This document shows, in pieces, positions 35,393 to 41,406 of a stretch of DNA of 64,000 nucleotides. Each line of letters starts with the position of its first letter. Within the stretch, counting starts at the first letter, position 1. The translations under genes were made by a program, and so were the position numbers. The stretch is from Escherichia coli (GTDB taxonomy: Bacteria; Pseudomonadota; Gammaproteobacteria; Enterobacterales; Enterobacteriaceae). Location: the NCBI RefSeq assembly GCF_003018255.1, contig NZ_CP027440.1; one strand, given 5' to 3'. The notes beneath the pieces are model-generated. The model did no database searches. It saw only the letters and a list, made by a program, of their open reading frames with translations, and was not told the origin of the DNA.

Positions 35393-35803
35393 ATGAAGTG
35401 GCAACAACGTGTTCGTGTCGCAACGGGTCTAAGTTGCTGGCAGATTATGTTGCATTTACTGGTAGTGGCGCTGCTGGTGGTGGGCTGGATGAGTAAGACT
35501 CTGGTTCACGTCGGCGTGGGATTATGCGCACTGTATTGTGTCACGGTAGTGATGATGCTGGTGTTTCAGCGCCACCCCGAGCAACGCTGGCGTGAGGTGG
35601 CAGACGTGCTGGAAGAGCTGACCACGACCTGGTATTTTGGCGCAGCGCTGATTGTGCTGTGGCTGTTGTCCCGCGTACTGGAAAACAACTTTTTGCTGGC
35701 GATTGCAGGGCTGGCAATCCTTGCTGGCCCGGCGGTAGTGTCTTTGCTGGCGAAAGATAAGAAGTTACATCACCTTACGTCTAAACATCGCGTACGCCGC
35801 TGA
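35393..35803 (+). CDS. ybhQ: inner membrane protein YbhQ
   Basis: 136-aa ORF with 4 hydrophobic segments; its 3' end overlaps the convergent ybhR 3' end. Confidence 0.85.
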
Positions 35804-36871
35804 CCCTGTCGTGGCCGTTATCACCAGTAGCGGCCACAAACTATTCCACACAATATCCAGACTCGCATCTTTCAAATAAATCTGCTTGGTAATGTCCGTA
35901 AAGTGGCGAATAGGGTTAATCCACGTCAGGTTTTGCAGCCATACTGGCATGTTTTCCACCGGCGAAACGTAACCGGAAAGGAGAATGGCGGGCATCATAA
36001 AGACAAACACGCCGATAAACGCCTGCTGTTGTGTTGAACAGAGTGATGAAATCAACAGACCGAATCCCACCAGCGATAAACCGTAAATCACCATCGTAAA
36101 GTAGAACAGCGCCAGCGATCCGGCGAAGGGGATTTGATACGCCCAGATACCAATCGCCAGCACAATGGTGGCCTGGAAGGTGGCGACAATTAATGCCGGT
36201 ACGGCCTTGCCGATGAAGATCTGCCAGGTGGTGAGCGGTGAGACCAGTAACTGATCGAGCGTACCTTGTTCACGTTCGCGGGCGACAGAAAGTGAAGTGA
36301 CGATCATTACGCCGATAGTGGTGATCATGGCGATCAGCGACGGCACCACAAACCATTTGTAGTCGAGATTCGGGTTATACCAGTTGCGTACCACCAGCTC
36401 GCTGTTGTTAGGTTTCGGTTTTCCTTCCAGCAGCTCCTGCTGATAATTTTTGACGATCTGTTGCAGGTAGTTGGCGGCAATTTGCGCACTGTTGGAGTTA
36501 CGCCCGTCGAGGATCAACTGCAACGGCGCGGTCTGGAAGGTATCCAGTTTGCGCGAGAAGTCAGCCGGGAAACGCACCAGGAGTAATGCCTTTTGTGTGT
36601 CGATGGTTGGGCGGATCTCCTGCGGGCTTTTCAACAGCAGCACATGGGTAAAGGCGCTGGCGCGGGCAAAACGTTGAGTAAGTTCTACCGAGTGTTCGCC
36701 GTTATCTTCATCGTAGATGGCGATGGTGGCGTTGGTCACTTCCAGCGTGGCGGCGAACGGGAACAGGATCACCTGAATCAGCACGGGTAAAATAAGAATC
36801 GCACGGGTTTGCGGTTCGCGCAGCAGCGACTGCAACTCTTTGCGGATTAACGTCCATAAGCGATGAAACAT
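35765..36871 (-). CDS. ybhR: ABC-2 type efflux transporter permease
   Basis: 368-aa membrane [36 protein letters not shown]. Confidence 0.92.
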
Positions 36872-36881
36872 GCTCTTCTCC

Positions 36882-38015: not shown

Positions 38016-39744
38016 TGCTATGCTCCTTATCCCAGTCGTGGATCAACTGAATAAAGGCTTGCTCCATCGTGGGATCGGGTTGCTCATCGTTGGCCGACTG
38101 CGCTTTCAAATCGTCCGGTGTGCCGCTGGCGATTAATTTCCCGCGGTACACCAGGCCGATGCGGTCGCAATATTCCGCTTCATCCATAAAGTGGGTGGTG
38201 ACCATCACCGTGACGCCTTTCTCTACCATACTGTTGATATGTAGCCAAAATTCACGGCGGGTGAGGGGATCAACGCCGGACGTCGGTTCGTCGAGAAACA
38301 GAATGTCCGGTTCATGCATCAGTGAACAGGCCAGCGCCAGCCGCTGTTTAAAACCTAATGGCAGTTCATCGGTCGCGTGGGAGGCGATACTTTTCAGGCC
38401 GAACGCCTCGCTCATACGGGAGATTTTTTCGTTCTGCGCCCGACCGCGTAAGCCATACACACCAGAGAAAAAGCGTAAATTCTGTTCGACCGTCAGGTTG
38501 CCATAGAGCGAAAATTTTTGCGCCATATAGCCGAGATGTTGGCGCGCTTTACCGGAACTCTCTTTCAGATCCATGCCCAGCACCAGCGCCTGACCAGAGG
38601 TCGGCACCAGCAAACCGCACATCATCTTAAAGGTGGTCGATTTACCCGCGCCGTTTGGCCCCAGCAAACCAAAAATCTCCCCGCGTTTGACGGCAAAGTT
38701 GACGTGATCGGTGGCGGCAAAATCGCCAAACTTTTTGGTCAGCTCTTTCGCTTCGATCACCGTCTCGCCGGGTGTGCCTTCTACCGTATGTAATATTGCG
38801 CCCAGCGGCGATTCCGAGGTTCCGGCACCGCCCAGCAAATCAATAAACGCATCTTCAAAACGCGGCGTAGTTTCGTTGATGTTGATTTCCGGCATCCCGT
38901 CGGCATGGCGAATATCGTCTGGCGTGGTCTCTTTTTTGAGGATCAGACGTACCGATTTCCCCTGAATCATGCCGTCGCTGACCTGCGGCAGTTTCAATGC
39001 CCGTTGCAACAGTTTGCGGTTGCCCTCGTGCGGGCTGGTCATCAGAAAGCTGCGTCCGGCCATAGTTTGAGTCAGGGCCGTCGGTTCTCCCTGATACAGC
39101 AGCTCGCCTTCGTTCATCAGTAACACGTCACGGCACTGTTCGGCTTCGTCGAGATACGAGGTGCTCCAGAGAATTAACATTCCTTCGCCTGCCAGCTCAT
39201 GCACCATCTGCCACAGTTCGCGGCGTGAGATAGGGTCAACGCCGACGCCGGGTTCATCGAGCAGCAACACTTTCGGTTCGCCCACCAGGGTACAGGCCAG
39301 GCCAAGTTTTTGCTTCATTCCGCCGGAGAGCTTGCCCGCCAGGCGTCCGGTAAACGGGCCAAGAGATGTAAATTCCAGCAGGCGAGCAAAAGTCTGCTTC
39401 CGCGCTTCACCGGTGACGCTGCGCAAATCCGCGTACAGATTGAGGTTCTCCATCACCGTCAGATCTTCATACAGGCCGAATTTCTGCGGCATATAGCCGA
39501 GCACGGCGTGCAGCGCGCCGTCGTTTTTGATCGGATCAAAGCCAATCACCGTGGCGCTGCCGCTATCGGGTTTCAGTAATCCCGCCAGCATGCGCATCAG
39601 TGTGGTTTTACCTGCGCCATCCGGCCCCACCAGCCCCGTTACATAACCAGCATGAATGGTACAGTCGAGCGGCGCGACGGCGGGCTTGTCCATGCCCGGA
39701 AAGCGTTTTTCCAGACCGTTCAGCGTAATAACGGCATCATTCAT
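38008..39744 (-). CDS. ybhF: ABC transporter ATP-binding protein with duplicated ATPase domains
   Basis: 578-aa ORF with two Walker A motifs (GPDGAGKTT and GPNGAGKST) and two LSGG signatures. Confidence 0.93.
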
Positions 39745-40735
39745 GTCCTGCCTCGTTACCGAATTGCACCGTCACCGGCATTCCCTGGCGTAAGGCATCA
39801 TCGGCGTCGGTCACCACAATACGCAGGCGATAGACGAGGTCGGTACGCAGATCCGGCGTTTCGACAGTTTTCGGGGTAAATTCAGCGGTAGGCGAAACGA
39901 AACCAATCTGCCCGTGATACGGTTTGTCCGGGCGACCGTCGGTATAAAGCAGCACTTTGCGCCCCGGCTGGGCCTGGTCGAGATTACGTTCATCAACATA
40001 AGCACGTACCCACACCGGACGTGTCAGTGAGACGGTAAAGACTGTGCCACCTTCATTGAGCACCGTGCCAGGCTCCACCGCGCGCGTTAACAGCGTGCCA
40101 TCAGACGGGGCTATCAACGTTGAGTCCTGTAAATTCAGCTCCGCCTGCGCCAGTTGCGCCTGCGCTTGTTCGAGGCTGGCTTTCGCCTGGGCGATGTCCT
40201 GTTCGCGGTTACCGGAACGGTACTGACGCAATTTATCCTGCGCTGATTTCAGCGTGGCCTGCGCCTGGTCGCGCGAGGAGCGGGCATTTTCCAGGTCATT
40301 TGCCGAAATGGTGCGGCTTTTCCACAGTCCTTGCTGGCGGTTATAGAAGTTCTGCGCATAGTCATAGGCAGCTTGCGCCTGTTTCACCGCTGCGGCGGCC
40401 TGAGCGATTTCTTCATCTCGATACCCGGCAAGCATCAGGTCATACTGCGCCTGAGCCACCGAAACGCCCGCTTTCGCCTGCATCAGGGCAATCTCATACG
40501 GCTTGTGATCCAGTTCGCCCAGTACCTGGCCCGCTTTGATCGCATCACCTTCGTCCACCGCCAGCGACTCAACGCGCCCCCCAACACGGAAACTAAGATT
40601 CACCGTACGAATATCCACGTTGCCATACAGCGTCAGGCCGTTATCCTGGCGGCTTTGATACCACCAGTAGCCTCCGGCAACCACGGCGGCAAGTACCACT
40701 ACCGCCAGTCCGATCACGACAGGTTTTTTCATCAC
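39737..40735 (-). CDS. ybhG: HlyD-family membrane fusion (periplasmic adaptor) protein
   Basis: 332-aa [30 protein letters not shown] followed by coiled-coil Q/A-rich region. Confidence 0.92.
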
Positions 40736-41406
40736 TACAAACTCCTTTGCGATAATCCTTGCAAAATCAGGTCAATATGACAGGTCACCGTCTGGTTGAT
40801 CAGTTCGGTCTTTTCTTCATCGAACGCGGTCCAGCCGGTACGTAACAGAATAGTTTCTTTGCCAAGACGAAACGCCAGAATCTCACCAATCAACGCATGG
40901 GTATGAAGGATCATGCGGGTATCGCTAGCGTCGCAGCCGGTCCAGGCGGCAATCAGGCGTGTAAGGTGGCTGTGTAGCGGACTAATCACCTGTTCGTGCA
41001 CCAGGTGATAGGCTGCCGTGGGAGAGAGCTGCTCACGGGAGATAAATTTGCTGAGGTTGACGGTGTCATCCTGGGTGAGCAGCTTAATCATGTTCCTGCA
41101 GGCGCGAAGGATCAGTTCACGGATAGCTGCGCGATCAGGCTGTGGTTGCGCGAACAAACGTTCGGCTTCTTCGGCGTGTGGACGGAACTGCTCGCCAATA
41201 AAATCGGCAATCCACTGGGCGCAGGCGAGGTACAAATCCTCTTTCGAACCGAAGTAATAGGTGATGGCAGCGATATTCTGCCCGGCCTGGGCGGCTATCT
41301 CGCGGGTGGTGGCGTTCATTCCATATTCACCAAACTGCGCCAGTGCGGCAGCAATCAGCTGTTTCTTCGCCTGTTCACCCTTGATTGTCATGGCAGGATT
41401 ATTCAT
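40735..41406 (-). CDS. cecR: TetR-family transcriptional regulator CecR
   Basis: ORF trimmed to [42 protein letters not shown] (223 aa), TetR HTH; first gene of the ybhGFSR operon. Confidence 0.9.

Follow-up and report, generated by a model that had tools for sequence, protein, structure and literature searches.

The known cecR-ybhGFSR operon in an Escherichia coli chromosome: a candidate CecR operator and a probable tripartite ABC-2 exporter with asymmetric cassette motifs

Gene content and conservation of the operon

We examined a stretch of 64,000 nucleotides (nt) from an Escherichia coli chromosome (contig NZ_CP027440.1, assembly GCF_003018255.1; hereafter the window), in which five successive minus-strand open reading frames fill positions 35765-41406. 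The locus is the chromosomal E. coli core operon cecR-ybhG-ybhF-ybhS-ybhR, which has already been described, and nothing in the present copy is unusual. An initial annotation, made from the sequence alone, had placed five minus-strand genes exactly within these limits and named them cecR-ybhGFSR, and both the gene calls and the identification held. The operon and its immediate neighbours are as follows:

40735-41406, minus strand: cecR (ybiH), the operon's first gene, encoding a TetR-family regulator of 223 amino acids (aa)
39737-40735 (GTG start) or 39737-40732 (ATG start), minus strand: ybhG, encoding a membrane-fusion (periplasmic adaptor) protein of 332 or 331 aa
38008-39744, minus strand: ybhF, encoding a fused double ATP-binding cassette (ABC) ATPase of 578 aa with two ABC_tran stretches
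36882-38015, minus strand: ybhS, encoding an ABC-2 permease of 377 aa
35765-36871, minus strand: ybhR, encoding an ABC-2 permease of 368 aa
35393-35803, plus strand: ybhQ, convergent, encoding a small protein of the inner membrane; the gene's final 39 nt lie within the 3' end of ybhR
41635-42996, plus strand: rhlE, a divergent RNA helicase gene that shares a 228-nt spacer with cecR

The identification rests on collinearity with K-12 MG1655, where the stretch from ybhQ to rhlE corresponds to b0791-b0797 and the operon, flanked by these two genes, to b0792-b0796. In addition, roughly 7.5 kb around the operon (35000-42500) are 100% identical to one annotated E. coli chromosome, and CecR and YbhG both score above their equivalog cut-offs (see below). 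Matches with at least 80% coverage of the 7.5 kb were found in 5423 of 5426 complete E. coli genomes, of which only two were at least 99% identical. This suggests that the window comes from a rare, sparsely sampled lineage, rather than that the locus itself is rare.

Compared to K-12, the five genes contain 183 nucleotide differences but only five amino acid differences in 1878 residues, indicating strong purifying selection. YbhR and YbhS are unchanged (with 28 and 22 nucleotide differences, respectively, that leave the protein as it is), YbhF and YbhG carry two changes each, and CecR carries one. Nucleotide identity per gene is 95.7-98.1%, i.e., a divergence of 1.9-4.3% that is nearly all synonymous, while the cecR-rhlE spacer differs at 2 of 228 positions. 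An unusually divergent, imported ybh region was considered and rejected, as the whole window (positions 1-64000 compared with K-12 788820-853767) is likewise 1-4% diverged. The K-12 operon (b0796-b0792) has the same gene order, strand, junctions (-1, -8, -8 and +10 nt), 39-nt overlap between ybhQ and ybhR, and palindrome as described below. The two copies differ by sequence divergence only, with no functional difference.

Published work already covers the operon, CecR and its crystal structure, and several drug phenotypes, so that the locus carries little weight as a discovery. The initial annotation called the system known but only partly characterised, in agreement with the published work on CecR, YbhFSR and YbhG (PMC12998191, PMC7190983, PMC6056769). 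The present analysis yielded corrected gene junctions, an exact candidate for the CecR operator and promoter, domain evidence for the ABC-2 transporter class, and an asymmetry between the two ATP sites of YbhF.

Gene junctions and the 3' end of the operon

It had been stated that all junctions in the operon overlap by 1-8 nt. Only three of the four do so (by 1, 8 and 8 nt), whereas ybhS and ybhR are separated by 10 nt. The 8-nt overlaps are those between ybhG and ybhF (ATGAATGA) and between ybhF and ybhS (ATGAGTAA). The cecR/ybhG junction, which reads TAGTGATG, depends on the start codon: TAGTG is a 1-nt overlap if the K-12-style GTG start is chosen, whereas the NCBI annotation of the identical genome uses an ATG start for ybhG, leaving a 2-nt gap after cecR. 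The 1-nt overlap that had been proposed thus holds for the former start only. The junction without any overlap is the following:

36872-36881, minus strand: ybhS-ybhR spacer of 10 nt, TAG-GGAGAAGAGC-ATG, containing a ribosome-binding site

This 10-nt spacing is also found in K-12, E. albertii and most Citrobacter loci. Upstream of ybhG (AAAGGAG), ybhS and ybhR, ribosome-binding sites can be recognised, and the sequence makes translational coupling across the operon's junctions plausible. As a separate observation, the ybhS-ybhR spacer of Citrobacter portucalensis (locus L038) measures 115 nt against 10 nt elsewhere, which we read as an apparent insertion at the very junction that lacks an overlap.

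At the other end of the operon, ybhQ (Pfam YbhQ, E = 2.4e-73) had been described as converging on ybhR with overlapping stops. The 3' ends do converge and the coding sequences overlap by 39 nt, but the stop codons themselves lie 36 nt apart. The overlap has the same length in every locus where both genes could be measured, comprising Escherichia, six Citrobacter-type loci and Mangrovibacter. Inspection of the ybhQ/ybhR overlap revealed no canonical intrinsic terminator.

CecR and a candidate operator and promoter

The first gene of the operon was annotated as a TetR regulator, and its domain content bears this out: CecR contains the Pfam domains TetR_N (aa 17-62) and CecR_C (aa 96-218) and reaches 417.7 bits against the NCBIfam equivalog NF008587 (cut-off 365). 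It differs from the K-12 protein by a single change, N161S, and matches PDB entry 9I1X (E = 1.7e-147), the crystal structure of CecR (PMC12998191). CecR has been reported to repress its own operon, with cephalosporins and chloramphenicol acting as ligands (PMC12998191, summarising Yamanaka 2016), and its site has been placed in the cecR-rhlE spacer (PMC12998191). The motif derived by chromatin immunoprecipitation with exonuclease digestion (ChIP-exo) for YbiH is an AT-rich inverted repeat (PMC6237786).

A search for a CecR operator palindrome upstream of position 41406, as proposed with the initial annotation, located a perfect inverted repeat next to a promoter-like sequence:

41419-41442, no strand: candidate CecR operator, TCTTAATCAA-atga-TTGATTAAGA (N4 centre), 24 bp, 12 nt upstream of the cecR ATG
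41442-41468, minus strand: putative cecR promoter, with a -35 hexamer TGGACA (41468-41463), a 15-nt spacer and a -10 hexamer CATAAT (41447-41442)

Allowing up to two mismatches, the palindrome is the sole match in the window, where 0.01 matches would be expected by chance. The 18-base core CTTAATCAA-N4-TTGATTAAG, which corresponds to the 24-bp palindrome minus 1 nt at each end, was searched for in 100,044 species, each represented by a single genome. This identified 81 loci, 23 in Enterobacterales and 58 outside. The Enterobacterales loci belong to Escherichia, Citrobacter, Salmonella enterica subsp. arizonae and diarizonae, Leclercia, Mangrovibacter and one metagenome-assembled genome. The core is located between cecR and rhlE in all 23, at 13-14 nt from the cecR start in loci where that start is readable. 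The palindrome arms are invariant across five genera, even at a CecR identity of only 67%. The centre varies, reading ATGA/TCAT in Escherichia and Mangrovibacter and TCGA in Citrobacter, Salmonella and Leclercia, so that in the latter three genera the entire 24 bp are palindromic. We propose the palindrome as a candidate binding site for CecR.

The -10-like hexamer CATAAT directly adjoins the palindrome, and both hexamers sit in blocks that are conserved across Escherichia, Citrobacter and Salmonella. They were read by eye, with this conservation as support, and probably constitute the cecR promoter. A consensus promoter scan of the cecR-rhlE spacer, which accepted spacers of 16-18 nt only, found nothing; the putative cecR promoter is absent from its output because a 15-nt spacer falls outside that range. 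Considering that the palindrome adjoins the -10 hexamer, a bound regulator would cover both the -10 and the start region, which is the classic TetR arrangement. Being exact and conserved across genera, the candidate operator and promoter can be used directly in binding or reporter work. An Rfam search of the operon and the cecR-rhlE spacer returned no known RNA family.

The 58 core matches outside Enterobacterales were considered as related operators and rejected. They have no CecR homologue nearby, their neighbouring genes are mixed, and most are from Bacillaceae and have an ACGT centre. In this family, the same 18-base core occurs with an ACGT or near-ACGT centre (CTTAATCAAACGTTTGATTAAG) in more than 30 loci from about 30 genomes (L008, L011, L013-L015, L022-L024, L026-L029, L031, L033, L034, L044-L046, L052, L056, L058, L061, L064, L067, L068, L072-L076, L080, L081, L083). 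The stem is often extended by the flanking sequence, and six copies lie on one Pseudalkalibacillus contig. In Bacillaceae, the core could either form part of a palindromic element that is repeated or serve an unrelated regulator as its operator.

On the other side of the spacer, rhlE has been reported to be under positive CecR control (PMC12998191, citing Yamanaka 2016). The initial annotation had suggested a comparison with the rhlE promoter. About 190-215 nt separate the palindrome from the rhlE ATG, and two conserved blocks that resemble promoter elements (GATAAT at 41504, TGcTACACT at 41532-41540) stand downstream of it, towards rhlE. It is thus outside the promoter-like blocks nearest rhlE and does not overlap the rhlE core promoter. 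This position would be compatible with CecR repressing its own operon yet activating rhlE.

The adaptor and the permeases of an ABC-2 transporter

YbhG contains the Pfam domains HlyD_D23, HlyD_3 and Biotin_lipoyl_2 and scores 605 bits against the NCBIfam equivalog NF002939 (cut-off 393). A single hydrophobic helix is present at its N-terminus (aa 6-24), as well as a long Ala/Gln-rich region typical of an adaptor hairpin. Its closest relatives by sequence are EmrA and MdtN, and its neighbours among solved chains include EmrA and MacA, in line with the HlyD adaptor that had been called here. As in tripartite pumps, this HlyD-family membrane-fusion gene is encoded together with the transporter, overlapping ybhF by 8 nt. 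YbhG has also been found to be destabilised in a tolC deletion strain in thermal-proteome data, and to have been recovered together with TolC by affinity purification (PMC6056769).

EmrA and MdtN are adaptors of major facilitator superfamily pumps, and their resemblance to YbhG could mean that YbhG serves another inner-membrane transporter, either instead of or in addition to YbhFSR, with the operon combining two loosely linked functions. Diverging knockout phenotypes point in the same direction, as loss of ybhF affects cefoperazone and loss of ybhG affects chloramphenicol (PMC7190983, PMC12998191, summarising Yamanaka 2016). However, the 8-nt ybhG/ybhF overlap is kept in Escherichia and Citrobacter, and the five-gene order is also found in Mangrovibacter and, as far as the examined loci extend, in Salmonella. 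Moreover, adaptor and transporter genes of one operon normally encode partners. We therefore consider a separate partner for YbhG improbable.

Both permeases contain the Pfam domain ABC2_membrane_3 (YbhS, E = 4.6e-39; YbhR, E = 3.8e-51), and they are paralogues with 27% mutual identity (E = 6e-45), as the initial annotation had proposed. They also share their layout, in which a single helix at the N-terminus is followed by about 130 hydrophilic aa and then by a helix cluster; in YbhS, the first helix spans approximately aa 29-47 and the cluster approximately aa 177-366. The hydrophilic stretch is presumably periplasmic. Among solved proteins, YbhR shows sequence similarity to an ABCG23-like transporter in its membrane domain (E = 9e-14). 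Sequence searches of the PDB, which covered YbhF, YbhR and YbhG and not YbhS, found no structure of these three proteins themselves.

A review lists YbhFSR in the MacB/FtsX family and calls ybhF the adaptor gene (PMC8277102). Neither an FtsX nor a MacB_PCD domain was matched in YbhS or YbhR at E <= 0.001. Instead, the permeases contain ABC2_membrane_3 and YbhF has a cassette of the DrrA type, which is the combination of a DrrAB-like ABC-2 system. By its sequence, YbhFSR is an ABC-2 transporter rather than the MacB-family member described in the review, and the adaptor gene is ybhG.

Comparison with known systems places YbhFSR among the DrrAB-type and other ABC-2 exporters, including ABCA and ABCG proteins. 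Common to these are the DrrA-subfamily cassette and the ABC2_membrane permeases, with ABCA cassettes and an ABCG23-like membrane domain as the nearest solved relatives. Unlike DrrAB, the two cassettes of YbhF are fused in one chain, YbhS and YbhR are separate paralogues in which about 130 hydrophilic aa are inserted behind the first helix, and a periplasmic adaptor gene is present. With MacAB-TolC the system shares an ATP-driven inner-membrane transporter, an HlyD-family adaptor and the reported TolC link (PMC6056769), whereas the FtsX and MacB periplasmic-core domains are lacking from YbhS and YbhR. YbhFSR-YbhG may nevertheless work like MacAB-TolC.

Asymmetric ATP sites in the double ATPase YbhF

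The fused two-cassette ATPase of the initial annotation was readily recovered. YbhF contains two ABC_tran stretches whose halves are 38% identical to each other, and it belongs to the DrrA subfamily (TIGR01188, 448.7 bits, cut-off 312.45). The nearest solved relatives of its cassettes are lipid-transporting ABCA proteins, with E-values of about 1e-70. Walker A and Walker B are intact in both cassettes, which differ in two other motifs:

39316-39330, minus strand: cassette 1 signature, canonical LSGGM
38350-38364, minus strand: cassette 2 signature, degenerate LPLGF
39157-39159, minus strand: YbhF Ser196, at the H-loop (switch) position of cassette 1
38191-38193, minus strand: YbhF His518, the cassette 2 counterpart of Ser196

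We surveyed these positions in 118 diverse two-cassette relatives, which share 37-66% identity with YbhF and come from a library that had been clustered at 50% identity. The representative library was used because a word-indexed homologue search listed only relatives with 74-100% identity (mostly 88-93%), too close for an assessment of deep conservation. The H-loop histidine was present in cassette 1 of only 2 of the 118 relatives and in cassette 2 of 114. In the signature, the first position was serine in 115/118 for cassette 1 and proline in 97/118 for cassette 2. The second position was glycine in 114/118 and only 17/118, respectively, and the third was glycine in 118/118 and 112/118. The Walker A lysine was found in both cassettes of all 118 relatives, and the catalytic glutamate in all 118 for cassette 1 and in 117 for cassette 2. 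The conservation of the asymmetry across these relatives indicates that it is an old trait of the family. Sixteen of the 118 are at least 800 aa long; judged from these lengths, with domain content left aside, the long relatives appear to carry a fused extra domain, presumably a permease as in RbbA.

ABC cassettes pair head-to-tail, and each composite ATP site uses the signature of the other cassette. Both deviations in YbhF, Ser196 and LPLGF, consequently fall in one composite site, while the other site is fully canonical. From the sequence, we infer full catalytic activity for just one of the two ATP sites; the one formed by cassette 1 and the signature of cassette 2 has neither the switch histidine nor LSGGQ. 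The same arrangement, with one degenerate ATP site, is known from the heterodimeric ABC exporters TM287/288, TAP1/2 and CFTR. As in these, both deviations of YbhF are in one composite site and the other is canonical; in contrast to them, YbhF keeps both catalytic glutamates and the predicted fold class is ABC-2 instead of type IV exporter.

A broader proposal is that double ATPases of the YbhF/RbbA type are obligately asymmetric motors, in which the degenerate site may bind ATP in a structural or regulatory role and only the other would drive transport, matching the non-identical pair of YbhS and YbhR. The catalytic glutamate that is kept in both cassettes speaks against this, as the "degenerate" site may still hydrolyse ATP, and we hold the proposal at even odds. 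No mention of the ATP-site asymmetry was found in the YbhFSR paper or in the literature searched on RbbA, which was covered incompletely, and we do not claim novelty. For the design of ATPase-dead mutants, the degenerate site indicates which cassette to target.

RbbA is a paralogue of YbhF in E. coli, and the RbbA-YhhJ-YhiI system resembles the present one: a double-cassette ATPase of the same subfamily is encoded with ABC-2 permease and adaptor genes, and its family shows the same ATP-site asymmetry. RbbA itself is an ATPase-permease fusion of about 909 aa, whereas YbhF has 578 aa and no membrane domain. As the RbbA model NF033858 is the top NCBIfam match of YbhF, YbhS and YbhR alike, one could suppose that YbhF is mainly a soluble ribosome-associated ATPase like RbbA and not the motor of a transporter. 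We consider this very improbable. The scores of 515.7, 226.6 and 183 bits, respectively, are all far below the RbbA cut-off of 1050, and ybhF is co-transcribed, in overlapping reading frames, with genes for two permeases and an adaptor.

Proposed function

Taken together, these features argue that the locus is a CecR-repressed, ligand-released operon for a tripartite ABC-2 drug pump, YbhFSR-YbhG-TolC, to which we assign a probability of roughly 0.8. A CecR dimer on the palindrome would block RNA polymerase at the cecR promoter, as the literature also supports. Upon binding of a ligand, such as the reported cephalosporins and chloramphenicol, CecR would be released and the entire five-gene operon transcribed. 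The downstream genes would be translated from their own ribosome-binding sites, located within or just past the preceding gene. YbhF, YbhS and YbhR, in one copy each, would then assemble into a pseudo-symmetric ABC-2 exporter, which YbhG would link to TolC in the outer membrane, forming a tripartite pump that expels amphiphilic drugs. Consistent with such a role, YbhFSR has been tied to tetracycline and ethidium efflux (PMC7190983), and the reported substrates comprise tetracyclines, ethidium, Hoechst dye and cefoperazone (PMC7190983; PMC8277102).

Several observations weigh against this assignment. The substrate claims are mostly modest whole-cell susceptibility or growth phenotypes, and the phenotypes of the ybhF and ybhG knockouts disagree, as described above. 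A role in Na+/Li+ tolerance was claimed by Feng et al. (PMC7190983) and has been doubted in a review (PMC8277102). On the regulatory side, the spacer of the putative cecR promoter is short and the promoter went unreported by the consensus scan.

Some of the same literature could be accommodated by a different native role, in which antibiotics are incidental and the system exports an endogenous or environmental amphiphile (lipid-like, a metabolite or bile-type) or ions such as Na+ and Li+. The claimed Na+/Li+ tolerance would fit the latter, although ion transport is the very claim that the review doubts. The higher CCCP (carbonyl cyanide m-chlorophenylhydrazone) tolerance reported upon loss of cecR (bioRxiv 10.1101/392977) can be cited for such a native role as well as for the CecR-repressed drug pump. 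For an amphiphile, one may cite the lipid-transporting ABCA proteins as the best solved matches of the YbhF cassettes, yet this likeness is a general trait of the ABC-2/ABCA family and is uninformative on substrate. The operon also adjoins the lipid genes ybhP-clsB-ybhN, which may or may not be functionally linked to it. A more general argument is that a core gene set, present in 5423 of 5426 genomes and under strong purifying selection, should have a role older than clinical drugs. The reported binding of cephalosporins and chloramphenicol by CecR (PMC12998191) speaks for drugs as the relevant compounds. On balance, we regard a native role of this kind as unlikely, if worth keeping in mind, and favour the tripartite drug pump.

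Other observations in the window

The rhlE leader (41546-41634) is strongly conserved across five genera, and the conserved stretch contains ATGACA-N10-TGTCAT with a run of T after it. At 41597-41634, the leader could form an imperfect hairpin that would mask the GGAG ribosome-binding site of rhlE. This hairpin was rejected as a supported structure, as it folds no better than shuffled versions do (z = 0.28) and, in other genera, substitutions disrupt base pairs about as frequently as they preserve them. RhlE itself has 453 aa compared to 454 in K-12, with one glycine fewer in its Arg/Gly-rich C-terminal tail (window 42700-42996).

Past rhlE, the NADAR/ybiA gene (43231-43536) is truncated, and the annotation of the identical genome lists it as a partial pseudogene. 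In K-12, ybiA is intact with 483 nt, and the window lacks about 288 bp of the K-12 sequence. In the rhlE-ybiA spacer (43071-43184), Rfam matches to naRNA4 and ES036, both repetitive extragenic palindromic (REP)-type repeats, stay below threshold. Two further K-12 segments are absent from the window, one of about 313 bp near position 31985 in the ybhL-ybhM region and one of about 140 bp near 55975 in the ybiO-glnQ spacer.

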